This document shows positions 9,385-31,501 of a DNA stretch of 64,000 nucleotides, in pieces. Made by a program: the position numbers and the translations under genes. The notes under the pieces are model-generated. The model was not told the DNA's origin. It saw only the letters and a program-made list of their open reading frames with translations, and did no database searches. Each line of letters opens with the position of its first letter. Within the stretch, counting starts at the first letter, position 1. The stretch covers positions 45,403 through 109,402 of the forward strand of contig CAWVLT010000044.1 in NCBI GenBank assembly GCA_963930185.1. Direction: 5' to 3'. The DNA comes from Coriobacteriia bacterium (GTDB lineage Bacteria; Actinomycetota; Coriobacteriia; Coriobacteriales; UMGS124).

Positions 9385-10437
9385 ATGAAAGGATGGGCGG
9401 TCGTGGGGAGGAAACTGGCGTCGGTTCAATACGTGCACGATGTGTGGCCAATCGAGGGTGCGGACTCCATTGAAGCCATAGGCGTCCTAGGCTGGACGTG
9501 CGTTGCAAAGAAAGGCGAGTTTGCGGTGGGGGACAGCTGCGTCTATTTCGAGATAGACTCGTTTCTCCCAATTGACGATCATTTCGAGTTCCTCCGCGCA
9601 AGCAGCTATAAGAATAGCGAGCTGTTGGGCGAGGGTTTTCGCCTCAAGACCCAGAAGTTCCGCGGGCAGATCTCCCAAGGGCTGGCGCTGCCCTTGAGTA
9701 TTCTCCCAGAGGGGAATTATGTGCTTGGCCAGGACGTGACCGAGCTTTTGGGCGTTCGCAAGTGGGAGATAGCTGAGTTCGCGAGCAGCAACGGAACGAT
9801 CATCGGGGGCCTTCCGGTGGGCCTGCCAAAGACGGAGGAATCGCGTGTGCAGGCAGAGCCCGGTTTGATCGACGAGTTTGTCGGCGTGCCCTATTACATC
9901 ACAACCAAAATGGATGGCACAAGCGTCAGCATGTTTCTAATTGACGGACGCTTTGGGGTGTGCGGTCATAATTACGAGTACGCCGATGACGGCAGGTGCT
10001 CATTTTGGGATTATGCGCGAAAGCATGACATAGAGAGCAAGATGCGCGATCTTGGCATTGGCGATGTCGTTGTGCAGGGCGAGTTCTGTGCCGCCGGCAT
10101 TCAAAAGAACCCGCTGAAGCTTACCAGGCCCGAATGGTATATATTCACCGTCTATGACCCACTTACTCGCAAGCATTTCTCCCTGGACAGAATGACAAGA
10201 CTTTGCGACAGACTTTGCCTGCAGGTTGTTCCCGTTGAAGAGCGGGGTGACGACCTGCCCTACAAGGACATAACGGCGCTGCTCGAGAGGGCTCGTGGTA
10301 ACTACCCAAGCGGAACGACGAAGGAGGGGATCGTGATCAGGCCGCTTGTTCCTGTGTACTCAAAGACGCTGGGCGGGCCTTTGTCTATGAAAGTGATCAA
10401 TAACGACTATCTGCTCAAGAAGGCAAAGCGCGAATAG
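9385..10437 (+). CDS. ATP-dependent RNA ligase, Rnl5 / DraRnl (DRB0094) family
   Basis: N-terminal OB-like module RKLASVQYVHDVWPIEGADSIEAIGVLGWTCVAKKGEFAVGDSCVYFEIDSFLP. Nucleotidyltransferase motifs: I TKMDGTS, III VVVQGEF, IV KEGIVIRP, V LSMKVINNDYLLK. The start could instead be GTG 9403. Confidence 0.75.
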   Translation: MKGWAVVGRKLASVQYVHDVWPIEGADSIEAIGVLGWTCVAKKGEFAVGDSCVYFEIDSFLPIDDHFEFLRASSYKNSELLGEGFRLKTQKFRGQISQGLALPLSILPEGNYVLGQDVTELLGVRKWEIAEFASSNGTIIGGLPVGLPKTEESRVQAEPGLIDEFVGVPYYITTKMDGTSVSMFLIDGRFGVCGHNYEYADDGRCSFWDYARKHDIESKMRDLGIGDVVVQGEFCAAGIQKNPLKLTRPEWYIFTVYDPLTRKHFSLDRMTRLCDRLCLQVVPVEERGDDLPYKDITALLERARGNYPSGTTKEGIVIRPLVPVYSKTLGGPLSMKVINNDYLLKKAKRE

Positions 10438-11406: not shown

Positions 11407-11655
11407 ATGCGGGGTGCCTGTCAACCTCGGATACTCGCGGTCGAGGTCGAGGAGGTTGCGCGTAAGCTTGGACCGGGCCGCTCGGAGTTCATGCGGGGCG
11501 CTATTGACGATCGGCTTGCCGCAGGTAGGGTAAATCCGGTAACGGTGCATGCTCATTTTGCTGTCAATCTGGACAAATCTCGACACACGGCAAAGCGATG
11601 TCGAGATTTGTCCAGATTAAACGCTATTGGAATTGGCGCAGGCGAGCCACTCTGA
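11407..11655 (+). CDS. possible small ribbon-helix-helix (CopG-like) protein
   Basis: Only the segment RILAVEVEEVARKLGPGRSEFMRGAIDDRL resembles an RHH. The 3' part of the ORF runs through a hairpin repeat. Weak call. Confidence 0.25.
   Translation: MRGACQPRILAVEVEEVARKLGPGRSEFMRGAIDDRLAAGRVNPVTVHAHFAVNLDKSRHTAKRCRDLSRLNAIGIGAGEPL
11566..11627 (+). repeat. hairpin repeat, copy A (20-bp perfect arms)
   Basis: AATCTGGACAAATCTCGACA - 13 nt - TGTCGAGATTTGTCCAGATT - AAACGCTAT. A second copy lies at 24541-24604 in the same orientation. Confidence 0.85.
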
Positions 11656-11785
11656 CGTGAGTGTAAGATCATCGGTTCGCCTGCGCCTTTGGTGTCTGAT
11701 CGCTGCAAGGTCAATTCAAGAGTTCGTTAGCAAGTGGGTGGGATTGATCCCCCAAGCTGGCTTTCTTTATACAGACGATCGACTT

Positions 11786-13519
11786 CTAGTCCGCCGCGAT
11801 TCCGTCGGCGCCCATGTCTCCGGTTTCGTCAGCTGTCTGGATGGTAGTCGCCTCAGGCATAACAGACTCGATAACGATACCTTCGTTTTCGATATAGGTG
11901 GCTGCATTATTGGCCGCTGCACGTCCGCTCCAGAAGGCGAAGGCGCTTGCCCAACCGGAATCAAGATGGTTGTAATCGCAGCCATAGCATCCGCCTGCGT
12001 CGTTGCCGATGACGTAAAGTCCAGGAATAGTCATCATTTCGGCGTTAACGGCCTCTAGCTTTTCGGTGACCTTGACACCACCGGTGGTATTGAGAATGCC
12101 GCAGATCATCTTGCACATATAAAACGGAGGCGTCTGCACCTTATGCATGTTGTTGACATCCTTATGGAACCACCAGTCGACGCCTTCGTCCACAGCGGCG
12201 TTGTACTCTTTAACCGTTGCGACCAGTTTTGCAGCATCAATTCCTGCGGCCTCCGCCAAGCCTTCGATGGTGTCAGCACGAATGATATTGCCTGATTCCA
12301 CGGCAGCATCGAGAGCGGCCGAAAGACCCTCAATAGGATCGTTATGGGAGGGCGTATAGACGGTTGTCTTGATGGTGGGGTTGTTTTCCATCATCTCAAC
12401 CATGTCGGAGTCGAAGAGTGAATAGTACATACCATCAGGCTGGTAGATGATCTTGTAATTCGATTCATTGGAGAACCGATCGGCGAGCTTGTTGACATAG
12501 AGATAGGGTTCACGTGCTGCACGATGTACAGGGCTGTCAATGACCTCTCCCTCTACCTGTTCGATAGTGCAGTCGTAGAAACGGATACCTTCCTCTGCGG
12601 CCCCTGCAGCCCAGGCCATACGGATACCTTCGCCATAATGGCCACCCATGCCGCCAGCAACCTTGTGACCTTGGGTTCCGCAGGCGAGCGCTTCATTGTG
12701 CCCGCAGTATTTCTCGAGCATCTCGGGACTGTTGGCAAATCCGCCAGTTGCAATGATGACAGCTCCGGCGCTTACTTTGACTACATTACCGTCCTTATCT
12801 GTGCATGCAACGCCGATGACGCGTCCGGAGTCATCTTGAATGAGATTGTTTGCATGCGTTTCGAGCAAGAACCGAGCGTTGTCAAATTCCTCGGCTTTGG
12901 CAACGAGCTTGTTGGCGAGGTGAATTCCACCCTTAGCATAGTTGCCATTGGCATCTTGATTCAGGAACATGATGCCTGCCGAGCCGCCGGGACCGCGAAG
13001 GCCCCACATGACACCGCCATCCGCGATGGTGCATCCTACATCATCGACAAGCCAGTCGATTGATGTGGCGCATTCTTCGGTGAACATGCGAACGAGCCTC
13101 GCATTGGCGCGCCAGCGGTTGAAGTCCATGTGATACGTGTAGGCATCAAGCGGGCTCTGAATCTCGTCACTCATCCCTGCTTCCTGCGTTGCCTTGCAGT
13201 CAAGCGTGTAGTGCGCCTCGACTCCGTAAAGGCCACCGCCGAGATAGCCAAAGTTTTCGACACCAATTACGTTAAGGCCATTTTCTGCCGCCTGCACGAT
13301 CGCGCACATACCGGCACCTCCGGTGCCGATTACAACAACGTCACATGCATATTCGGTTGCATTTTCTGTATCAAGGGGAATGATCTCCAAGCTCTCACCA
13401 GCTGTTTCTTCGGCAAAGGCGGGAGAGACGGCGAGCGACGCGCCCTTCAGTGTGCCAGCAGCTATGGCTGTTGATGCTGCCCCTACGACGAAACCTCTTC
13501 TCGAGACAAGCTCACCCAT
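11786..13519 (-). CDS. Tat-signal FAD-dependent reductase (FAD_binding_2; fumarate/urocanate-reductase-like)
   Basis: Leader MGELVSRRGFVVGAASTAIAAGTLKGASLAVSPAFA; DVVVIGTGGAGMCA dinucleotide fold; C-terminal IPGLYVIGNDAGG. RBS AAAGGAG. Confidence 0.85.
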   Translation of the reverse strand: MGELVSRRGFVVGAASTAIAAGTLKGASLAVSPAFAEETAGESLEIIPLDTENATEYACDVVVIGTGGAGMCAIVQAAENGLNVIGVENFGYLGGGLYGVEAHYTLDCKATQEAGMSDEIQSPLDAYTYHMDFNRWRANARLVRMFTEECATSIDWLVDDVGCTIADGGVMWGLRGPGGSAGIMFLNQDANGNYAKGGIHLANKLVAKAEEFDNARFLLETHANNLIQDDSGRVIGVACTDKDGNVVKVSAGAVIIATGGFANSPEMLEKYCGHNEALACGTQGHKVAGGMGGHYGEGIRMAWAAGAAEEGIRFYDCTIEQVEGEVIDSPVHRAAREPYLYVNKLADRFSNESNYKIIYQPDGMYYSLFDSDMVEMMENNPTIKTTVYTPSHNDPIEGLSAALDAAVESGNIIRADTIEGLAEAAGIDAAKLVATVKEYNAAVDEGVDWWFHKDVNNMHKVQTPPFYMCKMICGILNTTGGVKVTEKLEAVNAEMMTIPGLYVIGNDAGGCYGCDYNHLDSGWASAFAFWSGRAAANNAATYIENEGIVIESVMPEATTIQTADETGDMGADGIAAD

Positions 13520-13658
13520 GATGCAACTCCTTTCATGGCTAACTAGCGGCGGGACATCGCCGTATGCAGTCGGAGGCGATATCCCGCCACGACATTCGCT
13601 GGGTCAAGCTAAAAACATGCGCAGGATCGCGTTTGGTCCGGGGCAAAATGCCGTCGGC

Positions 13659-15896
13659 CTATAGCGCGCGTCCTACATCGTTGCCGCCGCGGATAGCAAG
13701 CGCGATGTTGAACGGCTCGTTACAGTCTCCGATGGCATACTTCTCTGCGATGTCGATCTCATCCAAGAGCCCTGCGTTGGGCAGCGGATCGGCAGCATTG
13801 ATAATGCTATCGCAGGCGATCTGCGCATCCACGCCATAGCCAGAACGAATAGTGATGCCACCTTCTTCAATAGAGATGATCTCAGAGCTCGGCCATACCT
13901 TGAGGCCAAGCGAGTAGAGGGAAGTAAGCATGAAGCGCCGGGCATGCTGGGACTGTTGGAGATCAAGATCTTCGTTGGCACTCGGGGTTACCATGATGAC
14001 CTTCTTGCCGTGCACCATGAGCCACAGAGTTGCGTCAAAGGCCTGGGCGTTCGAACCGTATACCACCACCGTGTTTCCGGTGTCATCACCCATGAACGCC
14101 TCGTATGGCAGGATCGGAACGCCTTCTCCTTGGATCTCGAGCACTGCCGGTTGAGATCCAACTGCCAGAACAACGGCATCGGGTGCGGCGCTAGCGATGG
14201 TATCCGCAGTGACCTCGGTGTCGAGAATGACCTCAACTCCGTTGATCTCAAGCTGCCGAGAAAGATAGGCAACCAGGTCATCCAGATTCTCGTGTGGGCC
14301 CTTGACCGCGTTTGCGGTCGGCAGCTTGCCGCCGAGCATGCCTGTCTTTTCGTATAGGGTAACTTTGTGACCGCGTGCGGCGGCGATACGTGCTGCCTCC
14401 ATGCCTGCAGGGCCACCGCCAATGACCATGACATTCTTTGGATCACTGGACAGAGGAGGAAGCTCGTAGGTCGCAGGGCCATTTTCGGTCATGACGCGCT
14501 GGGTCAGGGCGTTGACGCGACAGTAACCCATCTCGCGGTTTGCCTCGTTGCTGCCAATATGACAGTGCAGGCAACGACAGCATGGGGCGATTTCATCAAG
14601 GCGGCCCTCGCGTAGCTTGTTGACATATTCAGTGTCAACGGTAAGCGGACGGGTCATGGTGTAGTAGTCGACTTTGCCCTCTTCGAGTGCGTTCTCGAAG
14701 AAGTCGGGGGCATGGGCGGGATCCATGTACGTGACCGTGCCGATGGGGATACTGACGACCTCCTTGAACTTTTTGGTCACATCGAGCAGCATACCGGCGC
14801 CCTGGTGGGCTCCATCGAGCAGGCCTTGGAAGTGACGGTCGAAGTTGTACTGATAGCCCCAAGGGTTCATCCCCTCGAGACCTTTGAGGATGAAGTAGAG
14901 ATCGCTGCCAAATTGGGTGGGGTGATAGTCCTTGATTCCCAAGCGGATGCACAGGGCATCCATTCCGGCGGCCTCAAAGGCCTGGGCGAATGCCAGTTCT
15001 TCCTCAAAGGTCGTTTGCTGGTTATAGGGAAGGTTGACCTCAATGTCGAGCGCACTGAATGCCTCGCCTATGTTGTTGGTCAGGTTGTCGTTGTCGACGA
15101 TGCCCTCCATCAGCGCTTCGATAATGAAGTCGTCGCCGCAGGCTTCCTTAATTTTCTGAACGGTTTCCACAACTATGCGGGCACGATTCTCGATGCTCTG
15201 CGGGCCGTAATCGTCAGTGCGGTGGTTATAGTAGCGTGACAAGAACTGAGTGCAGAGGGTGTTGCCGGTCATATGGAAGCCGATCCCTTTGAATCCCATC
15301 TCTTTGAACCACTGGCAGTATTCCACGGCCCCCTGCTGGAAAACCTCAATGTCTTCGACGGTCATTTCATCACAGGGCTTCACGGGCAGCGGTACAAATT
15401 GCACACCATAGTAGGTTCCATACTGGGCACTCTCTTCGGCGAGGGCCTTTCCCCATGCCATGACTTCATCGCCGGTTACCCCATTGGGTCGTTCGGCGGT
15501 TGGCGACGGGCTGAGCCAGTCAATATATTCCATCATGATGAACTCAACTCCGCCCTTAGCGAAGTTGAGGTAGTACTGATACATCTCATCAGTCGGGCCA
15601 TTGAGGTAGGTTGCCGATCCAGCTGCCGATTTCATAATGCGGTTGCTCAACTCAAGAGGGCCGAACTTCAGAGACGAGAAGAGGGTGGTGAGCTCCTTGG
15701 TATTGGAGCGCCAGTCGGATTCATCTTGTGGGTTTACATATGCCTGTGGAATAAGCCCTTCGACGAGCGTTGCGGAAACACCATCGGTCGCCACGGGAGC
15801 CTCCTCGGCATATGCTGGCAGTGTTGCAGCAAAAGCAACCCCTGCTCCGGTGGCGCCCGCTACTTTAATTGCGTCTCTGCGGGTAATGCTTTCCAT
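13659..15896 (-). CDS. Tat-signal Old-Yellow-Enzyme / enoate-reductase (2,4-dienoyl-CoA-reductase-like) flavo-iron-sulfur protein
   Basis: Leader MESITRRDAIKVAGATGAGVAFAATLPAYA; OYE barrel start LELSNRIMKSAAGS; Cys cluster CCRCLHCHIGSNEANREMGYC; VIGGGPAGMEAARIAAARGHKVTLYEK FAD fold. RBS GGAGAGGAG. Confidence 0.85.
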   Translation of the reverse strand: MESITRRDAIKVAGATGAGVAFAATLPAYAEEAPVATDGVSATLVEGLIPQAYVNPQDESDWRSNTKELTTLFSSLKFGPLELSNRIMKSAAGSATYLNGPTDEMYQYYLNFAKGGVEFIMMEYIDWLSPSPTAERPNGVTGDEVMAWGKALAEESAQYGTYYGVQFVPLPVKPCDEMTVEDIEVFQQGAVEYCQWFKEMGFKGIGFHMTGNTLCTQFLSRYYNHRTDDYGPQSIENRARIVVETVQKIKEACGDDFIIEALMEGIVDNDNLTNNIGEAFSALDIEVNLPYNQQTTFEEELAFAQAFEAAGMDALCIRLGIKDYHPTQFGSDLYFILKGLEGMNPWGYQYNFDRHFQGLLDGAHQGAGMLLDVTKKFKEVVSIPIGTVTYMDPAHAPDFFENALEEGKVDYYTMTRPLTVDTEYVNKLREGRLDEIAPCCRCLHCHIGSNEANREMGYCRVNALTQRVMTENGPATYELPPLSSDPKNVMVIGGGPAGMEAARIAAARGHKVTLYEKTGMLGGKLPTANAVKGPHENLDDLVAYLSRQLEINGVEVILDTEVTADTIASAAPDAVVLAVGSQPAVLEIQGEGVPILPYEAFMGDDTGNTVVVYGSNAQAFDATLWLMVHGKKVIMVTPSANEDLDLQQSQHARRFMLTSLYSLGLKVWPSSEIISIEEGGITIRSGYGVDAQIACDSIINAADPLPNAGLLDEIDIAEKYAIGDCNEPFNIALAIRGGNDVGRAL

Positions 15897-16069
15897 GGCT
15901 TCTCCTCTCCCAGGCGCCGTCTACTGAATGCGGCGCTTTGAGGTCAGAGTAGCCAAGGTTTTCAAGAATATGCGCCTTGATGGTTGTTCGATATCGCGAA
16001 GGGTATAGGTTGAGAATACGCCTAATCCATTCGCGGATTGGAGGGTTGACAGCCCGGGGCGGCTTATCC

Positions 16070-17452
16070 TCACTGCTTGCTATTGTTCGAGCTCGTGGGA
16101 AGGAGCTTTTCCATTAACTCCTGGCGCGAGTGGACGTTTGCCTTGCGGTAAATATTCTTGATGTGTCCTCTTACCGTGCTGCAGGACAGGAATAGCTTGT
16201 CGGCAATTTGTTGTGGAGTCTCCCGGAGAAGCAGATGGCTTGCTATTTCAGTTTCTCGTGCTGTGAACCCGAAGGAATGCATGGCAACAGCAGAGTCGCC
16301 TTGTCTTGGCATGCCGCTGGGATTTCTATCCATGACAGATTGGATTTCTGCCTTTCTTGTACGCTGCGCGACAAAAGCCAAGATGCCGGAAACGAGCAGC
16401 AGAAAAAGGGATATCACCTCGATTGTCGCAAACGGGGAAGGCCCTATGCTGCTCAGTGATTCGCACACGGTCCCAATAAGAGCGCCCAAGAGTGTTGATG
16501 CTGACAGGGAGCAAAAGATTGCCGATGGAAGGAGGCAGTCAGGGAGGTTGTACTCCTTTGTCGCTTCGGCAGAGGCATGAGCTAATGACAAGAACAAAAC
16601 TTCCTGGATGACCAGTGTGACCGCTTTAATCGGCCCGAGATACCACAGGCCAAGTAGCGGCGCGGGAAGTAGCACTAGGGCGGTGATGAGAAATGCGGGG
16701 ATAACAAGTTGTGTTTTGTAGAGCCGCAAGCGAACAAGGAAGGTTCCAATCACAACTCCTACAAGGGGTGCGATGAGATGAATGAGCGTTTGGATATCGG
16801 GGCTTAGGGCCCCCATCGACATGAACAGGTAGCTTGTCGCAACAGATATCATCGTAATTGCGGTGAATCCGAGAAGCGGCATGCTTGTGGTGCGAATTTC
16901 TTTCATCGGGCATGTACCCGAACCACCTGCGCCATTGACAGATGGATCTGGGATCATGCGATTAGGCATGTCGTTGAGGAGCATGGCAGATATGAACGGG
17001 AATGTAGCGAAGAGGTAAAGGAGAAGTGGCGGGGGAATTGGGAGAGAAAAACAGCAGCTAAAAAGGTCGCCAACGAGGACTGCGATGCAGATGTCGAGCG
17101 GATCAGATGCTGTTCCCATAAAGCTTCTCAGGCTTATGATCTCCAGCATAATGAGTCCTGTTGCTGAGAGAAACGACCCGAAAAACCACCACATGGACTC
17201 AGGCAATGTCATGAGTATAACTAAGCCGAGCGAGGTTGATACGGCTAGGGGACACAGGATGGCGGGGGCTGTCGGATTGACTCGGCGCAGCGCGATGGGA
17301 CCCAAGATGGCAACGATTGTCGAAACTAGTAGGTAGAATGCAAAGGTTGCAGAAAGCCCGGCCCCGTCTCCAGGATAGGTAAAGGCGTTTTGGTTAACAC
17401 AACCTTTTCCAACTGCCCAGAGAAGTGCAAATCCGATGACCGATGACGACAT
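16070..17452 (-). CDS. polytopic membrane protein with C-terminal LuxR/GerE HTH (membrane LuxR-type regulator)
   Basis: Long run of hydrophobic segments followed by FGFTARETEIASHLLLRETPQQIADKLFLSCSTVRGHIKNIYRKANVHSRQEL. ATG 17452 has a GGGGAGGGGGG RBS; the ORF-track extension to 17668 is rejected. Confidence 0.85.
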   Translation of the reverse strand: MSSSVIGFALLWAVGKGCVNQNAFTYPGDGAGLSATFAFYLLVSTIVAILGPIALRRVNPTAPAILCPLAVSTSLGLVILMTLPESMWWFFGSFLSATGLIMLEIISLRSFMGTASDPLDICIAVLVGDLFSCCFSLPIPPPLLLYLFATFPFISAMLLNDMPNRMIPDPSVNGAGGSGTCPMKEIRTTSMPLLGFTAITMISVATSYLFMSMGALSPDIQTLIHLIAPLVGVVIGTFLVRLRLYKTQLVIPAFLITALVLLPAPLLGLWYLGPIKAVTLVIQEVLFLSLAHASAEATKEYNLPDCLLPSAIFCSLSASTLLGALIGTVCESLSSIGPSPFATIEVISLFLLLVSGILAFVAQRTRKAEIQSVMDRNPSGMPRQGDSAVAMHSFGFTARETEIASHLLLRETPQQIADKLFLSCSTVRGHIKNIYRKANVHSRQELMEKLLPTSSNNSKQ

Positions 17453-17730
17453 ATCCCCCCTCCCCTCGAGATCGCTTTCATTATAAGTAATGATTAGAGG
17501 GAGAAGGTTTTGGTGAACGCTTTTGTCCGGGCACTTCACTCGGACGCAGGGGAGGGGAGTGCGATAGAGTGGGGCCTGCGACGGCCCCCGTCGGGGGCTG
17601 GCGACAACCGCCGCCGGCCGCCGCGCGACTCCGCCGCTGCAGTAGAGGACCCCTGCGGGGCCCATCATAAAGCCCCTGGCTATGCCGGGGGATTATTACT
17701 CCGGCTGAGATGGGGCTGATTATGCTCTAC

Positions 17731-19179
17731 CTACGCGGAGATCTCTTCTATTTTGGAGAGCAATTCCTGTCTCGAATGAACCTCAGCCTTGAGATATAGC
17801 CTAACCACATGGCTATGGATTGTCGAGCGCGAAAGTCCCATGCTCTCGGCTATGAACGGCTCGCTTCTGCCTTTCATGAGAAGTAATGCAACTTCGCATT
17901 CGCGGGGCGTGAGACCATAGGCTTGTGTGAGGGCATTTTCTACCCTGGTCTCATCGCTCAGACGCATATCGAGCGATTCTTTCCTGATTCCCCAAAGAAT
18001 GGCAACATTATGATCATTAAAGAAAGTAAGTATAATAATAAGCATAGAAACGATAGTTATTTGGGATAGAGACATATAGAAATTATTGTTATTGATAAAT
18101 AATGCTGTTATTGTTCCAATAGCAGTACCTATCTGCATGAGACCACGACCAACTCCATATGGCCTCTCAAGCGGCAATCTAGTTTCAGAGGCTAGCTCAT
18201 AGATTATCATCCACATCAGGAGTTCAAAGCAGGTATAGCCCGCAGAGGCTGTTGCGTTAAGGAGCATATTTAGCCAATTGCTAGATGAACCATAGGCCAA
18301 AAGAAATGAGATAGCAAAAAAGGACGAACCAAGCATGCTGACAGTCCAGAATCTATTGCTGCACTTTACTGCAACTAAAAAAGAAGCTAATCCGATCAAC
18401 ATTCTACATAATTCATGAATTAGATAGTAATAATTAAAGAATTGCTCGCCACTGGGAGACAGGCCACGCATTAAGCCAAACGCAATGCCAAAGACTGAGA
18501 ATCCAGTCATTACTTTCCAGGGAAGGGTACTTTTGCTATGCCTGTCATCGATGCTGGATCTGGGGGACGTGTTTCTGGAGGTCGAAGACGACTGTTCCTC
18601 ATTAGATTCCCCACATAGAAAGAAAATTGAAATAGGGAGTAAAATCGTACATATAATAGATAAATATTTAGGTATAATATAAATAAATATATAAATAAAA
18701 CTCGATATAATCAGTGCAAGTGAAAAGATAGATAAGACAATTTGGTCACCGAGATCTGGATTAATGGATTTGCAGAGCTGGTAGAGCGCAAAGGCTTCGC
18801 CGAGACCTGCGAGGATGGACACGAAGATGAGCGCTTCGTTCGAGAACAGGCTACATACGGGAATGAGGGCCGTTCCTGCTGTTGCCAGTATCAAAGCTTT
18901 GGAGACAGAAATAAAGGATAGAATGCGCTGCGCATGCCTGTCGATGATCGGGATCAAGATAGTTATTACTGAGCAGGCAACCAGGGCAACAAGGTGGACT
19001 ATCTCGCTGCTGAGCAGCGGATTGCCAGAGTAAGATACGCAGGCTGTACCGAAGAATACCGATGATGCCCAGGCCCAGTATAGGCCAAGGCAGACGATGA
19101 TCCTGAAGTGGTTTCTGAGCTCGGCTAGGATTTTTTGGCCAGCTACTTTTTGATCAACATTAGCTGCATCAGGACCCAA
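17731..19179 (-). CDS. polytopic membrane LuxR-type regulator (AT-rich)
   Basis: Multiple hydrophobic segments followed by YGLTPRECEVALLLMKGRSEPFIAESMGLSRSTIHSHVVRLYLKAEVHSRQEL. TTG 19179 is preceded by AAGGAGG. Confidence 0.85.
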   Translation of the reverse strand: MGPDAANVDQKVAGQKILAELRNHFRIIVCLGLYWAWASSVFFGTACVSYSGNPLLSSEIVHLVALVACSVITILIPIIDRHAQRILSFISVSKALILATAGTALIPVCSLFSNEALIFVSILAGLGEAFALYQLCKSINPDLGDQIVLSIFSLALIISSFIYIFIYIIPKYLSIICTILLPISIFFLCGESNEEQSSSTSRNTSPRSSIDDRHSKSTLPWKVMTGFSVFGIAFGLMRGLSPSGEQFFNYYYLIHELCRMLIGLASFLVAVKCSNRFWTVSMLGSSFFAISFLLAYGSSSNWLNMLLNATASAGYTCFELLMWMIIYELASETRLPLERPYGVGRGLMQIGTAIGTITALFINNNNFYMSLSQITIVSMLIIILTFFNDHNVAILWGIRKESLDMRLSDETRVENALTQAYGLTPRECEVALLLMKGRSEPFIAESMGLSRSTIHSHVVRLYLKAEVHSRQELLSKIEEISA

Positions 19180-19409
19180 CTCTTAGCCTCCTTAAGCTCA
19201 AGTCTGATTGGTAAAGGATAGTATTGCTTGTAGGGATACGCTTCAACTACTTTAGTGGATGCCCTGATAAGAGTGTGACTAATTTAGATCTATGAATTTC
19301 TTCCATACGACGCAAAGATGCTGATTAGTCGCTGTGTCTGCTAGTGCTTTTAGGGATGCAAGACAAGGCGATGTTTAATGACTGGTGGCATACGAGAAGG
19401 GAATGAATC

Positions 19410-20936
19410 ATGGAAAAGACCATCGATCGCCATAGTTTCATTTCATATGCAGTGGCAGCAGGTACGGTTGCGGGGTCTTCTCTGCTGGCTTCGCCCGCCG
19501 TGGCGGAAGAGGTGGCTTCTAATTCTGGTACGGATGGCGACGCTGTCTCTGAGGTGCTCTAGGCGGACGTCGTTGTTGTGGGTGCGGGCATTTCTGGCCT
19601 TGCCGCAACGGTACAGGCTGCGGAGTTGGGATTGAAGGTCATCACTCTTGAGGTCAATGACTTCCTTGGTGGTAACGGCTTGGGCACCGAGGGCATATTC
19701 GCGATCGGCTCAAAGGGACAGCAGGAACAGGGAATAGAACTGACGTTGGCCGATATAGTGGCGAATGAGCAGGACTTCTTTAAGTATAAGGTCGATGCTC
19801 TTTTCTGGAAAGATATGGTCGAGCAGTCTGCTGACACGATAGTTTGGCTTGAGGATAACGGAGTTGAATTCTCTGGCCTGATCGATGACTACCCGCCTCT
19901 CGGTTCTGTCAAAACAATGCACTGGTGGAAGGACGGCCTTGGTTCTTCCTATGTTGATCCAATGGGGACCAAGGCAGAAGAACTTGGCGTACAAATTCTC
20001 ATGCAGACGCGCGGACAAGAGCTGGTTCTTGATAATGGTAAGATTGCTGGCATATTGGCAACCGACGCTTCTGGCAATTCGCTTCAGATTGATGCTCCTG
20101 TTGTTATTTTGGCAACTGGTGGTTTTGCCGATAATAGTGAGAAGCTGCAAGAGGCTGCTGGTGTTGATCCGAGCAAGGTGTTTGTGCGCAGCTTTGGTGG
20201 CCATATGGGTGATGGGCTCGATATGGCTATTCAGGCTGGTGCTCGAGATTACTCGCTTACCTCTTCATACCTGAGAGAGACCACAATCAAGGATGTCGAC
20301 TTCGCAACGCCGTTCTCGATGTATTTCTTCACAACCGGTGCCAACCTCTGGGTCAACGAGAATGGTGAACGGTTCGCTGATGAGAACTGCTTGTCAATTA
20401 CATCTGGCTGCCAATCAAATGCAAACACGAACCAGAAGCAAACGTATGCGTTGTTCTCTCAGGAGATTCTCGATGCAAACCCCGATGCTGCTGCCGCTTG
20501 CGCTGAGCTGCTTAGTTCGGGAACCGAAGAAGTTGCCATGGGAGAAACGGTAGAGGAGCTCGCCGAAAAATTCGGGGTTCCCTCCGATGTGCTTGCGGAA
20601 ACAGTTAGTCGCTACAATGGGTTCTGCGACGCAGGCCTAGACGAGGATTTCGCGAAGGATCCTTCGCAGCTCATACATCTCGAGCCGCCTTTCTACATGG
20701 CCAGAATGAGCTACTGCTACATGTCTTCGATTGGGGGAATAAAGACGAGTAGGCACGCGGAGGTTCTCGATTCGTCGGGCTCTCCCATCCCCGGCTTGTA
20801 TGCAGTCGGTAGCGATGGCTGCCAACTATACGCCGGTACTTATACGATATCGGTATGTAGCTCATACAACGGAAACAATGTCTACTCCGGGCGAAATGCC
20901 GCACGCAATGCGCAGGAGTATATAGCCGATCTGTAG
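19410..20936 (+). pseudogene. FAD_binding_2 reductase interrupted by an in-frame TAG, with a degenerate Tat motif
   Basis: ATG 19410 reads MEKTIDRHSFISYAVAAGTVAGSSLLASPAVAEE...SEVL, then TAG (19560-19562), then ADVVVVGAGISGLAAT in the same frame through to 20936. RH replaces the twin-arginine. Restarting at GTG 19578 would delete beta-1 of the FAD fold. Confidence 0.7.
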
Positions 20937-21048
20937 GTGTTGTCTGTTCGAAGGTGTTTATGAGTAGCGGATTAGACATCAGACCGATACTTAACTCATG
21001 GACATTTGTCTAAAGGTCGATTAAGAGAAGCGTGTCGGTTGTTGCAAC

Positions 21049-21084
21049 AAGGGGCGCGGGGGCCATTTGGCCTCTGCGCCCCTT
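21049..21084. terminator. hairpin between convergent genes
   Basis: AAGGGGCGC - 18 nt - GCGCCCCTT, lying between the 19410-20936 (+) and 21138-22838 (-) genes. Confidence 0.5.
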
Positions 21085-21137
21085 GGTCATATTGCTTTAG
21101 ACACCCCGCTGCAGTTCCTGTTCCTCCGAAAGAGGGG

Positions 21138-22838
21138 TTACTCGTTCTCTGCGATGTACTTGCCGGTAAGATAGGGGAATGTGATGCAGTTGATTCCGTA
21201 GTTGGCGCCCTGCATCATGAACGTGTACTTACCTGCAAACATGTCACCAACACCGGTGCCGACGTTATAGAGACCAGGAATTGCCTCATCGTTTTCGTCG
21301 CATACCTGCATGTGGACATTGGTGCGCAGGCCACCAAGGATGGTGTAGAAGCGAACGGGATAGTGGTCAACAATCTGGCAATAGAACGGCGGGGTCTGAA
21401 TGGGGATCAGGAAATCGGGGTCCTTGTAGAAATCGGTATCACTGCCGTTTGCACAGAGCTCGTTATAGTGATTGACCGTCTCAACGGCAGAGGCAGGAAG
21501 ACCAGAAAGCTCAAGAAGCTCCTCGATCGTTTCGGCCTTGATGTAGTTTCCTGCCTCAACCTCCGCTTCCCAGGTGGCAATAACATCCTCAGGGGAGCGC
21601 TTCGACTCTTCGCGGTACTGATATGCATACGCCGTGTCGTACCAATCGAAGCGATTGGCCCAATCACTGTCCCAGATGGCCCAAGTACGACCATTCTTTT
21701 GCATGGCTTGGGTCATTGGGCCAAGGGAACGGGATGCGTATTCGTTCATGAAGCGTTCGCCGTCTGCATCAAGCAGCAAGCCAAAGAAGTTCTGGTAGCG
21801 GTTGACGGTTGCTCCTCCTGAGAAAGTACCAACCATCGGGCAGTTCGGAAGGGTCTTTTGCCAAGCGGCACCAATCCACAGCGCAGCCTTGTGCATATCG
21901 CCCTTATAAAGGCCTCCGACGGCCATCTGGAGATCATAGTTTTGTTCGGAATCGTAGATATCATCGCTAATCATGCTTGCATACTCAGGTGCATACTTGA
22001 GCATCATTTCGCGATCAGCCGAGAAGTCACCGGCTGCAATTACGATCGCCTTGTTGCCGACGTACTTGTTGTATCCGCCATTTTCTAGATCGCGAGCGAT
22101 GACTGCCGTGACGCGGCCGGATTCTTCGTCGCGCACGAGCTGATAGCCGGCGTTGCGCCAAACGACGGTGCCGCCTTCTTCCTGGAACCTACCAACAAGC
22201 TCGTTAACCAGCGCTTCCTGGTTTTGGCTAGCTTTGTCCGAGCTGATATCAGGCAACCAGCTATGCGAAGCGGGATACGAGAAGTAGATGCTGTCTTCTT
22301 TCAGGTAATTGCTCTGCTCAAGGGCGGTAAAATAGCCACGCTCTTCCATGATGTCGCTGACCCAGTCAAAGGCTTCTTCGCACGTGTTGTACCAGAGGTA
22401 CCATTTCTTCTGGTCAACGGCATTGTAGTTGGCGAGGATCTCTTTCTGGACCTCAAAAACGGGCATGCGCTCAAGTCCGGCATCCTTCATTGCCCGGCTA
22501 TACGCGCAGCAGTTTGAGCCTCCGCGGCTGCACGGAACAGAGGATGCGGAGAAGAGAATAGTGTTCAGGCCGTTGTCGATGCAGGAGTTGGCGCAGATGA
22601 TGCCGGCGGTGCCAGCGCCAACTACGACAACATCAGCCTCATAGGTTTGCGCAATCTCGTCATCAGAAACAGGATCAGGGGCTACCTCAAACCCCCATTT
22701 ACGCTGGGCAATTTCAGGAGTCATGAGATCGTCGGCCGAAGCCTCGTCCGCACCGGCAATTGAGGTGGCCCCGATTGTTGCTGCGCACCCAATTGAAGCG
22801 GCGGCGCCCTTCAGGAAGTTCCTTCTTGTGGTACTCAT
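21138..22838 (-). CDS. Tat-signal FAD-dependent reductase (FAD_binding_2)
   Basis: Leader MSTTRRNFLKGAAASIGCAATIGATSIAGA; DVVVVGAGTAGIICA; C-terminal IPGLYNVGTGVGD. RBS AGGAGGAGGG. Confidence 0.85.
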   Translation of the reverse strand: MSTTRRNFLKGAAASIGCAATIGATSIAGADEASADDLMTPEIAQRKWGFEVAPDPVSDDEIAQTYEADVVVVGAGTAGIICANSCIDNGLNTILFSASSVPCSRGGSNCCAYSRAMKDAGLERMPVFEVQKEILANYNAVDQKKWYLWYNTCEEAFDWVSDIMEERGYFTALEQSNYLKEDSIYFSYPASHSWLPDISSDKASQNQEALVNELVGRFQEEGGTVVWRNAGYQLVRDEESGRVTAVIARDLENGGYNKYVGNKAIVIAAGDFSADREMMLKYAPEYASMISDDIYDSEQNYDLQMAVGGLYKGDMHKAALWIGAAWQKTLPNCPMVGTFSGGATVNRYQNFFGLLLDADGERFMNEYASRSLGPMTQAMQKNGRTWAIWDSDWANRFDWYDTAYAYQYREESKRSPEDVIATWEAEVEAGNYIKAETIEELLELSGLPASAVETVNHYNELCANGSDTDFYKDPDFLIPIQTPPFYCQIVDHYPVRFYTILGGLRTNVHMQVCDENDEAIPGLYNVGTGVGDMFAGKYTFMMQGANYGINCITFPYLTGKYIAENE

Positions 22839-22961
22839 GCTTGCCCTCCTCCTGAAACGGTTGCTAAACGAACCCTGTACGGGTACTCGCTGACAATCTT
22901 TGCTAAAAGGAGGCGGGCTGAAACCACATAAATAAGGGTAAAAGGCCGTGCGTTGAAATTC

Positions 22962-24398
22962 TCACATGGAATGGGTGAGATGCGTTGGATCCTTTGGGCT
23001 TTCAAAGGCGTCAATAAGCTCCTGTTTGCTATGCAGGCCAAGCTTACGATATATGCTCTTGGTATGAGATCGCACCGTGTTTTCTGAGACACCGAGTTGT
23101 CTTGCAATGATGGGAACGCTTCTTCCTTTCAGCAACAGTAATAGGACATCATATTCGCGTTTGGTCAAACCCATTTCTTTCGGGTCGGCAACGGGGAATT
23201 TAGATACCGGGGCAGAAGGGGATAGCGACAGCAGCTGCCCCTGTTTACCTGTTATTTTGCTCTCGCATAGAAGAATGATTATGTATATGAGTAGCAGGGC
23301 GAACGCTAGTATCCTAGACATGTTTACCATGTGGTCGAGAGCCATGGGGCGCACGAGGGCGGCTCCGATGTTGCTCGAAGAATAGATGATGCAGAAGGAT
23401 ATGCAATAAATAACAACAGGGTGAACCTTATAATCATAAGATACTTTATTACAATAATATAATGTGATAATTGAAGAGAAGGAAAAGAAACAATATGCGA
23501 CTGAAGACAGTGCAATATAAAAGCCTGAGGTATATGATGGAAGGATAGCGAATGCGGCAATCAGGCAGGGATAGATTACCCGGTAAGGCATCGCAGGGGA
23601 CATGGTATCAAAGATCCTTATCAGGGGGAGTATTGCTAGCCCCGACAAGAGCCTCCCCAGAGAGAAAAGTTCTCCAAGCAGCTCCGTGGGTGAATCGACA
23701 CGCGAGGAGGCAGAGCTAAAGATGCCCCAGACAACTCCAAATGCGGAGATGCAAACTATCGCAAGAGCAAGTTCCTTAACCGCAGGTCTGATGCTGGCGC
23801 CCTGGCTTACGTCGGCAACAATGCCAAAGTGTTTTTTGAGGCGCCTTTCTGTTTCAAACAACGAATAGGTCGACAGAGACAACAATGCGAGATATGGAAT
23901 CGTGCGGAACATGGCAAGATCTAGCGGTAGCCAGATGAAGAGGAAGTAGAGGAAAGCACCGATGCAGGTGCCTGTTGCGAGGACAAAGAGAGGGTCTTTG
24001 CTTCCGAGGCGAAACATCATCTGCTGCCAAAGAATATATCCCAATATGGTCCCGATCCCCGTAAAAGAGGCCGCACAGCAATCGAGGGTGTAGGCAATTG
24101 AGACCGAGAAGGAAGCGACTGAAGTCACTGTCTGAATAGCGCAGGCAACAGCAAGTATGCTGGTATACAAGACAGTTACTTTAACTATATTGAACTTTAA
24201 CTTTTTATTTTTAATATATAAAATGATAACAAATAGCATAGTTGCCGTGCTAAATATATCACTTACGCTATAATTTTGAAAAAGTACGTTGTTATTAAGC
24301 GGGGATTGCACTGGCCATCCGATAAACGAGACCAGGCCAAGATGGGCACCGAAGCCAACGGCAGAGAAAATGCTTGGAGTTTTCAGCCTGATGCTCAC
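22962..24398 (-). CDS. polytopic membrane LuxR-type regulator
   Basis: Hydrophobic N-terminal ~400 aa followed by MGLTKREYDVLLLLLKGRSVPIIARQLGVSENTVRSHTKSIYRKLGLHSKQEL. GTG 24398 follows AAGGGGG. Confidence 0.85.
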   Translation of the reverse strand: MSIRLKTPSIFSAVGFGAHLGLVSFIGWPVQSPLNNNVLFQNYSVSDIFSTATMLFVIILYIKNKKLKFNIVKVTVLYTSILAVACAIQTVTSVASFSVSIAYTLDCCAASFTGIGTILGYILWQQMMFRLGSKDPLFVLATGTCIGAFLYFLFIWLPLDLAMFRTIPYLALLSLSTYSLFETERRLKKHFGIVADVSQGASIRPAVKELALAIVCISAFGVVWGIFSSASSRVDSPTELLGELFSLGRLLSGLAILPLIRIFDTMSPAMPYRVIYPCLIAAFAILPSYTSGFYIALSSVAYCFFSFSSIITLYYCNKVSYDYKVHPVVIYCISFCIIYSSSNIGAALVRPMALDHMVNMSRILAFALLLIYIIILLCESKITGKQGQLLSLSPSAPVSKFPVADPKEMGLTKREYDVLLLLLKGRSVPIIARQLGVSENTVRSHTKSIYRKLGLHSKQELIDAFESPKDPTHLTHSM

Positions 24399-24540
24399 GG
24401 TGCCCCCTTGCCGAGCGTGAAGATAGGGAGATTATATACGCGATCGTCAGGTCTGGCATACAGTCCGGTGGGGTCCTATGCCAAGCGGATTCGTATCGAG
24501 CGCGTGGAACATGTCCCGGGAAGAAGCCCTCCGTGATAAT

Positions 24541-24604
24541 AATCTAGACAAATCTCGACATGGATGGCGAAACGTGTCAAGATTATGTCTAGATTGAACG
24601 CTAT
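24541..24604 (+). repeat. hairpin repeat, copy B
   Basis: AATCTAGACAAATCTCGACA - 14 nt - TGTCAAGATTATGTCTAGATT - GAACGCTAT. The left arm differs from copy A at one base (G to A), matched by a compensating C to T change in the right arm. Confidence 0.85.
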
Positions 24605-24637
24605 CGCATTCCAGCAGTTGTCCGGATTGGAGGCCCC

Positions 24638-26152
24638 ATGCTACTAGGTGAGCTCGAAAAAGTGCTGCATTCGGGAGAGTCGTCCAATGTCGAATTTAAG
24701 CGCTGCGGTGACCTGCCAGGAAACGATGTGTTCGAGAGTATTTGTTCGTTTGCCAACCGTTATGGCGGAGATATCTACCTAGGCGTATGTGATGACGGGA
24801 CAGTCGTCGGGATTGACGCACTTCGCGAGAACGAGATAAAGCGCAATCTCGTAAACGTGCTCAATAACCCGAAGCTGTTCGACGTTGCCCCCACTGTTGA
24901 GATCGAGAGTATAGGAACTCCGCAGGGAACTGTTATCCGCCTATGGGTTCCGATGAGCCCGCATGTCCTCCGATACAAGGGCGTTGTGTACGACCGAGTT
25001 GCCGACGTTGACGTAAAAATCAGCGGGGTGGCCCAAATATCCGCAATGTACATTCGCAAGCAGTCCTATTACAGCGAGCGTAAGATATTTCGCTATCTCA
25101 GGCTATCCGATCTACGTGGCGATCTAATCGAGCGCGCACGAAAAATGGCTGTGCTCCGAAGCCCCGGGCATCCCTGGAAAGAGATGGATGACGCTCAGCT
25201 ACTACGTAGCGCGCGGCTGTATGACACGGACTACGACACGGGGGTGGAGGGCTACACGCTTGCGGCGGCCTTGCTGTTTGGCCCCGATGATGTGATCGCC
25301 AGCGTGTGTCCGCCATACCTGACGGACATCATCGTTCGTCGCGAGGATCTTGACCGCTATGATGACCGCCTTATCGTGAGGACCAACCTGCTTGATGCCT
25401 ATGACCAGATCATCGACTTCATTTGCCGGCAGCTTCCTGACAGGTTCTATCTTGATGGAACGCGCAGCGTAAGCCCGCGTGACATCATCGTTCGCGAGCT
25501 TGTTGCCAACTCCCTTATGCATCGGGAGTTCAGCAGCGCCATTCCGGCGCGCTTTGTCATCGAGAACGATGGCATCCATGCAAGCAATGCGTCCCGCTCG
25601 ATGTTAGAGGGGGCAATCACCCTCGGTGACTTCAGCCCTATTTCGAAAAATCCCCTCATTGCCGGCGTTTTCCAGCAGATCGGCTTTGCCGAGCAGGTTG
25701 GCAGTGGCATGCACAACCTATACCGGTACTCGCGGATATATTCCGGCAAGGATCCGGTGTTTGTGGAAGGTGACGTGTTCAGGGCCTTCGTTCCGGTGAA
25801 CTACGTGGGTGGCCCGGCCACTGGTCACAAAGATGCGTTTGCCCTCCAAGCGGGGCCGTTGAACGAGAACCGACCGGAGGAGAATCGGGGAGATCGTGCG
25901 CGAGAGGGTAGGGGATTCGCGGACATGCTGCCGGTTCCTAACACGGCTTCTGCCGCCGCCTCGCCGCGCGATGTTCCTGGCGCCATCGAACGGGACATCG
26001 AGCGCAATGGTTTTGCCACTGCCTCCTCGACGGCGTCCATAGCCGGTGTCTCCAACCGAACGGCGAGTCGCTACCTCAATGCCGCCGTAAGTTCCGGTGA
26101 CCTCCGCATGGAGGGAAGCACGCGCAACCGCCGGTACTTCTCGATGAGGTAA
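24638..26152 (+). CDS. AlbA_2 (Schlafen-like divergent AAA) domain protein with C-terminal HATPase_c_4-like region and wHTH; putative regulator
   Basis: N-terminus LHSGESSNVEFKRCGDLPGNDVFESICSFANRYGGDIYLGVCDDGTVVGI is the AlbA_2 signature. The C-terminal end ASIAGVSNRTASRYLNAAVSSGDLRMEGSTRNRRYF is wHTH-like. Confidence 0.7.
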   Translation: MLLGELEKVLHSGESSNVEFKRCGDLPGNDVFESICSFANRYGGDIYLGVCDDGTVVGIDALRENEIKRNLVNVLNNPKLFDVAPTVEIESIGTPQGTVIRLWVPMSPHVLRYKGVVYDRVADVDVKISGVAQISAMYIRKQSYYSERKIFRYLRLSDLRGDLIERARKMAVLRSPGHPWKEMDDAQLLRSARLYDTDYDTGVEGYTLAAALLFGPDDVIASVCPPYLTDIIVRREDLDRYDDRLIVRTNLLDAYDQIIDFICRQLPDRFYLDGTRSVSPRDIIVRELVANSLMHREFSSAIPARFVIENDGIHASNASRSMLEGAITLGDFSPISKNPLIAGVFQQIGFAEQVGSGMHNLYRYSRIYSGKDPVFVEGDVFRAFVPVNYVGGPATGHKDAFALQAGPLNENRPEENRGDRAREGRGFADMLPVPNTASAAASPRDVPGAIERDIERNGFATASSTASIAGVSNRTASRYLNAAVSSGDLRMEGSTRNRRYFSMR

Positions 26153-29264: not shown

Positions 29265-29600
29265 TGCTGCGTTCCTTTCTCGAACTTTCGGTGCGGCGGA
29301 CTGGGGCTCGCCCACCTTGTCCATGGCACGTGCCGGGCGCGAGCGCAACCCACGCGGTTTCGGGCGTCGGCACGGTGCCACTTGTCGATGACTACGCTAT
29401 CCGACCAGGCCGCGATGCGCTATCGACCGAAATTATCCGAGTGCCCGTCACGGGAAAACGGGGTCGACAATTATGGTCGATGGGGTGCCCTGACGAGCGG
29501 AAAAGCGCTAAGCTATGGTCATGCGTCGTCACGATTTGAACGAAAGCTGCCGCGGCGACGAGCACGAGGGGTTGTGGCTGGCGAGGCAGGGAGGACGGCT

Positions 29601-31166: not shown

Positions 31167-31260
31167 AGAGGGCACGCGGGCTGATTCTCCCGTGTCGAAG
31201 CTGTCGGAGGGCTCCTGGCTGGATCCTGCATGTAGGGAACGCATCGCGGAGAACGAGTCG

Positions 31261-31446
31261 CGCGCGAAAAAACGCTTTCGATGGACAAACTTTTCGGTTG
31301 GGAGGGACTTTTGAAGGGCCACTTATCTACAGACGGGCGAAATTGACGTGATATCTCATCAATCAATGAGACAAATGGCCAAACCGGAGTACCAAAGTCC
31401 CTCCCAACCGTGATACTTGTCCATCGCGGACGATTTTTCGTGCGCG
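31261..31446. repeat. about 186-bp imperfect palindrome (MITE-like, or long structured RNA/terminator)
   Basis: The left arm CGCGCGAAAAAACGCTTTCGATGGACAAACTTTTCGGTTGGGAGGGACTTT (from 31261) pairs with AAAGTCCCTCCCAACCGTGATACTTGTCCATCGCGGACGATTTTTCGTGCGCG (to 31446), around an AT-richer centre of about 80 nt. Confidence 0.7.
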
Positions 31447-31501
31447 AGGCAATCGCGTGCCGGGCAGCGGCCTCCGCCGACCGGCCCCCGTCGGTTGTTT
31501 C

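Follow-up and report, generated by a model that had tools for sequence, protein, structure and literature searches.

Two neighbouring membrane LuxR sensors in a Coriobacteriia reductase island probably belong to separate sensor-reductase cassettes, one of them decaying

The closest described relatives of the genes studied here are LuxR regulators with a membrane sensor domain (TM-LuxR; TM, transmembrane) and the flavin reductases encoded beside them. Each of DadR, HcdR and CadR switches on a single adjacent enzyme gene when that enzyme's substrate is present, with no cross-regulation in the HcdR and CadR mutants tested, and 50 of 83 TM-LuxRs of E. lenta lie near flavin enzymes, a figure that was counted but not tested genetically there (Dong et al. 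2022, PMC9734109). In E. lenta, 64 reductases directly neighbour such regulators, and the exported flavin reductases in this position are respiratory-like and substrate-induced (Little et al., bioRxiv 10.1101/2022.12.26.521950). We analysed a 64-kb stretch of contig CAWVLT010000044.1 from a Coriobacteriia bacterium (hereafter the window), in which two TM-LuxR genes, LuxR1 and LuxR2, stand in tandem upstream of genes for two putatively exported reductases. With a probability of about 0.7, we interpret this array as two independent sensor-reductase cassettes lying side by side on a variable island, one of them decaying, and not as a two-sensor device. We hypothesize that the low-GC reductase island of this uncultured member of the Eggerthellaceae is built from self-contained cassettes, each with one 12-TM LuxR sensor and an adjacent flavin reductase exported by a twin-arginine signal.

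The four genes follow one another on the minus strand in this order:
17731-19179, minus strand: LuxR1, the distal sensor, 482 aa, with a C-terminal GerE helix-turn-helix (HTH; PF00196, residues 423-474, E 8.5e-12).
16070-17452, minus strand: LuxR2, the proximal sensor, 460 aa, with a C-terminal GerE HTH (PF00196, E 4e-11).
13659-15896, minus strand: OYE, a 745-aa flavoenzyme of the old yellow enzyme / 2,4-dienoyl-CoA reductase (DCR) type that combines an FMN barrel with a 4Fe-4S cluster and an FAD domain.
11786-13519, minus strand: FADb2_577, a predicted exported FAD_binding_2 flavoprotein reductase of 577 aa (PF00890, E 1.4e-37).

Open reading frames (ORFs) and domains agree with the coordinates and gene order in the first-pass annotation of this DNA, which had also described the distal sensor as AT-rich, the spacer between the sensors as G+C-rich with hairpins, a divergent reductase at 19410 as dead and both enzymes as exported; these descriptions hold, the last of them on the evidence of predicted twin-arginine signals on OYE and FADb2_577. 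Its interpretation, namely paired sensors acting as a heteromer or on two ligands and a two-step reductive pathway, fared worse, as the following comparisons show. In our reading, cassette A would run from LuxR2 to OYE and FADb2_577, and cassette B would consist of LuxR1 and the divergent FAD_binding_2 reductase at 19410-20936, a pair conserved in other lineages.

LuxR1 lies 230 nt from this divergent gene:
19410-20936, plus strand: pseudogene of an exported FAD_binding_2 reductase, with the start codon ATG at 19410, an in-frame TAG at 19560-19562 and RR changed to RH in the twin-arginine motif.
19180-19409, unstranded: divergent promoter region of LuxR1 and the dead reductase, with the conserved motif CTAAAGTAGTTGAA at 19242-19255.

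Relatives of LuxR1 are few (13 in 5.8 billion clusters, 11 of which match over the full length). In all four contexts inspected, its homologues (30-44% identity; those looked up in detail, 33-40% over the full length) adjoin intact, RR-bearing orthologues (49-67% identity) of the 19410 reductase, divergently in L088/L089, L090 and L092 and convergently in L091 (L- and P-numbers denote the loci and proteins fetched for comparison; about 95 loci were fetched). The motif CTRAAAYAGTTGAA recurs in the equivalent intergenic regions of L088, L090 (twice) and L092; it matches the window once, at 19242-19255, and is absent upstream of LuxR2, OYE and FADb2_577, each of these regions showing at least five mismatched positions. 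We tentatively propose it as a candidate LuxR1-family operator or -35 element. The pairings of the homologues and the shared intergenic motif thus mark LuxR1 as the predicted cognate regulator of the 19410 reductase. At the level of comparative genomics, the distal LuxR belongs with the divergent dead reductase, an outcome that the first-pass annotation had itself named as contrary to its proposal. The nonsense codon stands where orthologues have D or E, the export motif reads DRH where they have DRR, and the same TAG is present in three independent metagenome assemblies in which the locus was found at >99.9% identity to the window. The nonsense codon and the loss of the export motif have inactivated the cassette B reductase, and LuxR1, as judged from the sequence, is now an orphan sensor.

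The proximal sensor keeps different company. The longest ORF of LuxR2 extends to 17668; ATG 17452 is preceded by a strong Shine-Dalgarno sequence, GAGGGGAGGGGGG, the N-terminus GFALLWAVGKGC is conserved in P0135 and P0136, and metagenome gene calls likewise give 460 aa. These two proteins are the only true relatives of LuxR2 (P0135, 94% identical, from strain L094; P0136, 42%, from L093), and the gene of each is followed by an OYE orthologue. In L093, P0136 is followed by the OYE orthologue (79%) and then by an ORF for an exported FAD-binding protein; assignment of this last fragment as an FADb2_577 orthologue is unsupported because its 79 available residues match other FAD_binding_2 proteins better. 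In L095, the orthologue of FADb2_577 (P0138, 69%) directly and divergently adjoins a LuxR2-family sensor, whose membrane domain, among about 30 TM-LuxRs, matches only LuxR2, P0135 and P0136 (phmmer E 1e-13 to 1e-18). Thus, the contexts in L093, L094 and L095 show that LuxR2-type sensors accompany both enzyme types, and the OYE / FAD_binding_2 unit would have LuxR2 as its cognate regulator. The synteny comparison that had been suggested as a check on the paired sensors separates them: the LuxR1 family goes with orthologues of the 19410 reductase, the LuxR2 family with OYE (L093) and with the FADb2_577 orthologue (L095).

LuxR1 and LuxR2 both lack a characterised orthologue, and the regulators beside the closest OYE orthologues (L004, L084, L086), considered as candidate orthologues of the two sensors, were rejected as they form a family of their own. 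LuxR1, LuxR2 and the further sensor LuxR3 have only the HTH of about 60 aa in common (41-50% identity; 41% between LuxR1 and LuxR2). A recent duplication giving rise to LuxR1 and LuxR2 was rejected because their membrane domains show no similarity; those of all three sensors are mutually dissimilar. In the AlphaFold2 (AF2) model of LuxR1 (pLDDT 80.7, pTM 0.80) 12 helices in a 6+6 arrangement precede the HTH, and Foldseek matched the membrane domain to transporters of the major facilitator superfamily (MFS), among them VMAT, sialin, OxlT and DgoT, with probability 1.0 and a target-normalised TM-score of 0.56-0.70. An MFS-transporter-like 6+6 fold can be predicted confidently for the 12-TM sensor domain of LuxR1; this fold is not mentioned in the paper that defined the family (PMC9734109). 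For LuxR2, DSSP on a low-confidence AF2 model also gives 12 helices (6+6) and the hydropathy peaks agree, which is weaker evidence than that for LuxR1.

LuxR1 is the AT-rich gene of the array, with a GC content of 0.438 and a third-position G+C content (GC3) of 0.464, as compared with 0.517 and 0.562 in LuxR2 and a GC of 0.54-0.56 in both enzyme genes. AT-richness as a trait of the LuxR1 family was rejected, since homologues elsewhere are slightly or not lower in GC than their partner reductases. In six of seven pairs in the window, the TM-LuxR gene is lower in GC and GC3 than its partner. The composition of LuxR1 therefore reflects in part a general effect of membrane-protein coding or low expression, and in part something peculiar to this copy.

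The region between the two sensor genes coincides with the border of a strain difference:
17542-17730, minus strand: G+C-rich hairpin spacer, 69% G+C, the last 189 nt of the strain-variable segment.
17453-17541, minus strand: LuxR2 upstream region, 89 nt kept in L094, with TATAAT at 17480-17485 and GAGGGGAGGGGGG; GC 0.48.
17542-26044, unstranded: strain-variable segment of about 8.5 kb, with the spacer, LuxR1, the dead reductase, an FAD_binding_2 gene (21138-22838), LuxR3 (22962-24398) and most of a Schlafen/AlbA_2 gene (24638-26152).

Strain L094 matches the window from 17541 to 6069 at 98.2% identity, which covers the LuxR2 promoter region, LuxR2, OYE, FADb2_577 and downstream genes, and from 31311 to 26045 at 94.8%. 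In place of the 8.5-kb segment it has 207 nt (L094 5275-5481), part of which is an internal AlbA_2 gene remnant of 75% identity. The junction at 17541/17542 falls inside the LuxR1-LuxR2 spacer, where the G+C content shifts from 48% to 69%; the hairpin-rich spacer thus forms the border of the variable segment. The spacer folds better than 200 of 200 shuffled sequences (z -3.2) and carries a terminator-like hairpin at 17673-17691, 40 nt past the LuxR1 stop codon, while a perfect TATAAT (-10 box) lies 27 nt before the LuxR2 start codon, within the 89 nt that L094 retains. An origin of the spacer from a repeat or mobile element was rejected, as it occurs as a single copy in the window and the approximately 95 fetched loci and matches no Rfam family. 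Since L094 has the LuxR2 unit at 98.2% identity and no LuxR1, this unit is found in an essentially unchanged state where LuxR1 is missing. The segment that is absent from the sister strain carries cassette B, a third cassette and the spacer, and the tandem arrangement of the sensors is therefore probably an accident of island architecture.

These data bear directly on the proposal that LuxR1 and LuxR2 act together, as a heteromer or as two ligand inputs, on one operon whose enzymes reduce one class of substrate in two steps. Proteins with a GerE-type HTH usually work as dimers, and the two sensor genes are intact neighbours on one strand; with its own target lost, LuxR1 could be available for re-use, and the association of LuxR2-family sensors with both enzyme types would fit one substrate class. 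On the other hand, the HTH is all that the two proteins share, sensors of the LuxR1 family accompany another reductase in four lineages, the operon persists at 98% identity in L094 without LuxR1, a hairpin and a -10 box separate the two genes, and the LuxR1-family motif is missing upstream of the operon genes. Among 79 OYE loci in reference genomes, none has two co-directional LuxR genes upstream, and the E. lenta TM-LuxRs tested showed no cross-regulation (PMC9734109). We consider joint action of the two sensors very unlikely. A related scheme, in which LuxR1 has been re-used to feed a second ligand signal into the LuxR2-OYE-FADb2_577 unit or the 21138-22838 reductase, through cross-binding to a promoter or an HTH-mediated heterodimer, is also highly unlikely; if true, cross-talk between 12-TM LuxR sensors would be seen here for the first time.

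Returning to cassette A as a self-contained unit, the LuxR2 gene ends 173 nt upstream of the OYE gene:
15897-16069, minus strand: LuxR2-OYE intergenic region, with GCGCCG-N11-CGGCGC just 5' of the OYE Shine-Dalgarno sequence.

No strong terminator-like hairpin was found directly after the LuxR2 stop codon, and this region would contain a LuxR2-dependent promoter. The OYE ribosome-binding site is immediately preceded by a G+C-rich inverted repeat both in the window (about 15912-15935, GCGCCG-N11-CGGCGC) and in L093 (about 1700-1730, GGCGC-N5-GCGCC). The search for a shared LuxR2 operator by k-mer comparison of the upstream regions from the window, L093 and L095 gave chance-level matches only, and neither GCGATATCG nor the 14-mer arm of the hairpin was enriched.

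The OYE enzyme (Oxidored_FMN, PF00724, E 3.9e-24; Pyr_redox_2, E 1.6e-14) begins with a predicted twin-arginine signal, TRRDAIK...AYA/EE, in which RR is nearly invariant among homologues. The 4Fe-4S cysteines Cys439, Cys442, Cys445 and Cys459 and the FAD motif GGGPAG at 493-498 are invariant. The NAD(P)H site is degenerate: IIGCGGIGFD of DCR aligns with VYGSNAQAFD, so that GSNAQA replaces the NAD(P)H-binding GxGxxG, and G614, N616, A617, Q618 and A619 are invariant in 18 homologues. The closest solved structures are 2-naphthoyl-CoA reductase (6qkg, 1.7e-49) and DCR (1ps9), and the bit scores stay below the NCBIfam cutoffs for BaiCD (260 vs 793), the long form of bilirubin reductase (230 vs 750) and mycofactocin OYE_2 (190 vs 825). 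The closest relative in reference genomes, 80% identical, comes from a metagenome-assembled genome (MAG) of an uncultured member of the Eggerthellaceae. More widely, the family is 55-61% identical across Chloroflexota, Bacillota and Coriobacteriia and includes one spirochaete MAG (loci L004-L082); all 18 aligned homologues carry a signal peptide, either an RR signal or a lipobox. We found no curated family for this combination of export signal, OYE, Fe-S and FAD domains and no paper describing it, and it was not found among the reductase classes surveyed in the work on respiratory reductases (bioRxiv 10.1101/2022.12.26.521950). Resveratrol reductase (RER) as a relative was rejected, since RER is an FAD-only enzyme placed outside the OYE family by its authors. 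It is possible, and more likely than a new role for LuxR1, that the enzyme stands for a class of extracytoplasmic ene-reductases that is so far undescribed, spans several phyla and works without NAD(P)H.

Across the 79 reference-genome loci the OYE gene has a LuxR gene at ≤1.5 kb in 20 cases and an FAD_binding_2 gene in four. In the latter (L021, Desulfitobacterium; L026, Anaerolinea; L036, Oscillospiraceae; L034) the OYE-family gene stands directly beside a non-orthologous exported FAD_binding_2 gene, and such neighbourhoods in distant phyla may stem from a general tendency of reductase genes to cluster or from a looser functional link. No universal electron-transfer partner was found beside the family in these loci; an exported ferredoxin-like protein is encoded in five of the 79 and is absent from the window.

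The second enzyme of cassette A, FADb2_577, carries, as judged from its sequence, a signal peptide of the twin-arginine type that reads SRRGFVVGAASTAIAAG...AFA/EE (SRRGFVV...AFA/EE). The protein is rare and lineage-specific, with a single close representative (P0138, 69%) in 1.84 billion clusters, and a scan of JGI metagenomes found no relatives. It has the fold of flavocytochrome c3 (Fcc3 1qjd, E 1e-25 over residues 54-543) and lacks an FMN_bind or cytochrome domain. In the phmmer alignment, the catalytic residues of Fcc3 are replaced (H365 by T318, R402 by K356, H504 by L476 and R544/545 by H518), only Arg381 being retained (R333), and FADb2_577 is predicted not to be a fumarate- or urocanate-type enzyme. 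No curated NCBIfam cutoff was reached, the best match being vinyl phenol reductase (208 bits against a 600-bit cutoff).

The OYE and FADb2_577 genes are separated by a gap of 139 nt, and strong stem-loops lie within this gap and after the second gene:
13548-13588, minus strand: intercistronic stem-loop, GGCGGGATATCGCC-N13-GGCGATGTCCCGCC, a G+C-rich stem of 16 bp without a U-tract, ending 28 nt before the FADb2_577 start codon.
11564-11687, minus strand: two very strong stem-loops downstream of the FADb2_577 stop codon, between the convergent FADb2_577 and Xre-type genes.

The downstream pair probably marks the end of the transcription unit; the fold of 11560-11800 on the minus strand has a minimum free energy of -96.4 kcal/mol (z -6.3, none of 200 shuffles as stable), and one stem is perfect over more than 20 bp. 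The intercistronic stem-loop is unique in the window and may be a partial terminator, an element of mRNA stability or an operator. Of the two-enzyme operon proposed in the first-pass annotation, the gene block stands, LuxR2-OYE-FADb2_577 being intact in the second strain L094, and co-transcription of the two enzyme genes is plausible. A gap containing such a hairpin fits read-through with attenuation or separate transcription alike.

If the hairpin at 13548-13588 is a true terminator, FADb2_577 would form a separate transcription unit with its own, possibly LuxR2-dependent, promoter, inherited from an ancestral divergent LuxR2/FADb2 cassette into which OYE was inserted. The L095 locus, where the orthologue is directly divergent from a LuxR2-family sensor with no OYE gene, and the loci L004, L084 and L086, where OYE orthologues stand alone with another sensor family, would agree with such a history, as would the style of the 16-bp hairpin, which without a U-tail matches that of the putative terminators beyond 11786, and a TTGACC hexamer upstream of it. 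However, the distance from the hairpin to the start codon is only 28 nt, so that transcription from any promoter would have to pass the hairpin; a pattern scan of the gap found no sigma-70-like promoter, and L093 has the same layout, in which OYE, a G+C-rich hairpin, a Shine-Dalgarno sequence and an exported FAD-binding gene follow one another across a gap of 70 nt. Taken together, we judge a separate unit to be unlikely.

The two enzymes do not appear to be obligate partners, each occurring without the other in its closest relatives. The L095 locus shows no OYE gene in the DNA recovered, where the upstream contig ends after about 1.4 kb, and in L083 OYE and a non-orthologous FAD_binding_2 gene have a LuxR gene between them. 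An obligatory two-step pathway is not supported. That LuxR2-type sensors go with both enzymes suggests a response of these sensors to related ligands; this association is the only support for the idea of one substrate class.

By analogy with DadR, HcdR and CadR, we propose for cassette A that the membrane domain of LuxR2 binds a small metabolite, aromatic or unsaturated, and that the ligand-bound sensor would activate the promoter upstream of the OYE gene. FADb2_577 would be expressed by read-through past the intercistronic hairpin or from its own LuxR2-controlled promoter. Both enzymes would be exported with their cofactors already bound, and the substrate would be reduced outside the cytoplasm. 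Because the nucleotide site of OYE is degenerate, its electrons could not come from NAD(P)H; presumably they would be drawn from the membrane electron-transport chain.

Several observations weigh against two independent cassettes of this kind. The closest OYE orthologues (73-82%; L004, L084, L086) use another TM-LuxR family and have no FAD_binding_2 gene downstream, and therefore the case for control of OYE by LuxR2 comes down to L093, L094 and gene position. The L095 regulator runs off its contig and shares only 24% identity with LuxR2. It is unproven that OYE and FADb2_577 are co-transcribed, as the 16-bp hairpin lies between them; this hairpin resembles those that probably end the unit after FADb2_577 and may terminate transcription. 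LuxR1 is fully intact and keeps 54 of 54 family-invariant residues, and it may therefore still do something, cross-regulation included. The candidate operator motif is based on four loci and is hence tentative. Finally, the 8.5-kb event may have been an insertion in the window strain or a deletion in L094, and the 75%-identical AlbA_2 remnant kept by L094 points to a history beyond one clean insertion or deletion.

If two independent cassettes are the correct reading, adjacency of sensors in the dense reductase islands of Eggerthellaceae does not imply their cooperation, and cassette membership can be assigned by asking which reductase the homologues of each sensor adjoin in other genomes. The locus would also offer a clean natural example of a sensor orphaned by the recent death of its enzyme on a strain-variable segment, a case useful for predicting strain-level gut metabolism of dietary or drug compounds. 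Should the exported OYE enzyme turn out to act as a respiratory ene-reductase, anaerobes would have a wider range of known electron acceptors.

The wider locus is a reductase island with at least eight large GerE regulators, seven FAD_binding_2 reductase genes and the OYE gene, mostly with one sensor per reductase, and five further clean sensor-reductase pairs lie within the 64 kb. GC3 is 0.46-0.68 for genes at about 2980-26152 and 0.82-0.92 for core-like genes (phosphoglucomutase, NlpA, the serpin and the 27441-29381 reductase), and therefore all four genes studied sit in compositionally foreign DNA. The low-GC3 island 2980-26152 also has three Xre-type HTH genes, a phage-type RNA ligase gene (9385-10437) and the Schlafen/AlbA_2 gene, and this extra content looks like that of mobile or defence islands. 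In L001 (ENA ERZ21549426), an assembly of this locus, LuxR2, LuxR3 and the 21138-22838 gene are frameshifted, with 11 gap openings over 22 kb; the frameshifts probably stem from indel errors in long reads, and the genes would not be true pseudogenes. Outside the island, an inverted repeat of 54 nt (31258-31311 and 31394-31447; 80% complementary, 82 nt apart) lies just downstream of a LuxR gene ending at 31166, and the serpin gene (43354-44952; PF00079, E 1e-51), which encodes an N-terminal extension, adjoins another LuxR/reductase pair.

Compared with known systems, LuxR1 and LuxR2 resemble the 10-12-TM LuxR regulators of Dong et al. in their 12-helix N-terminal membrane domain, their C-terminal GerE HTH and their position next to reductase genes, as well as in having highly divergent membrane domains among paralogues, a common HTH and many copies per genome (at least eight in the 64-kb window). 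Unlike LuxR1 and LuxR2, whose neighbours are flavin enzymes, the characterised regulators of that work control molybdenum catechol dehydroxylases. FADb2_577, the dead reductase and the 21138-22838 product share the FAD_binding_2 fold and N-terminal signal peptide of the respiratory-like reductases of Eggerthellaceae (urocanate, cinnamate, itaconate and resveratrol reductases; Cgr2) and, like the reductases of Little et al., adjoin a transmembrane regulator and are strain-variable; unlike fumarate reductase, FADb2_577 lacks all four catalytic His/Arg residues. The OYE enzyme has the FMN barrel, the 4Fe-4S motif CxxCxxC...C and the FAD Rossmann domain of the DCR, enoate reductase and 2-naphthoyl-CoA reductase class (1ps9, 6qkg; BaiCD, BilR). 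Known members of this class work in the cytoplasm and draw on NAD(P)H or ferredoxin. The window enzyme differs from them in its predicted twin-arginine export signal and in GSNAQA in place of the NAD(P)H-binding GxGxxG. The equol cluster of Slackia and Adlercreutzia, also Eggerthellaceae, combines an OYE-type daidzein reductase with an FAD_binding_2-type tetrahydrodaidzein reductase in one reductive pathway; its enzymes are cytoplasmic, it also has a short-chain dehydrogenase/reductase and a racemase, and it is likened to the window by description only. Unlike the pairing in that cluster, the closest relatives of the window OYE and FADb2_577 do not keep the other as a neighbour. The combination of a 12-TM LuxR with an exported flavin reductase is thus of a kind already known (Dong 2022; Little 2023), and both cassettes belong there.

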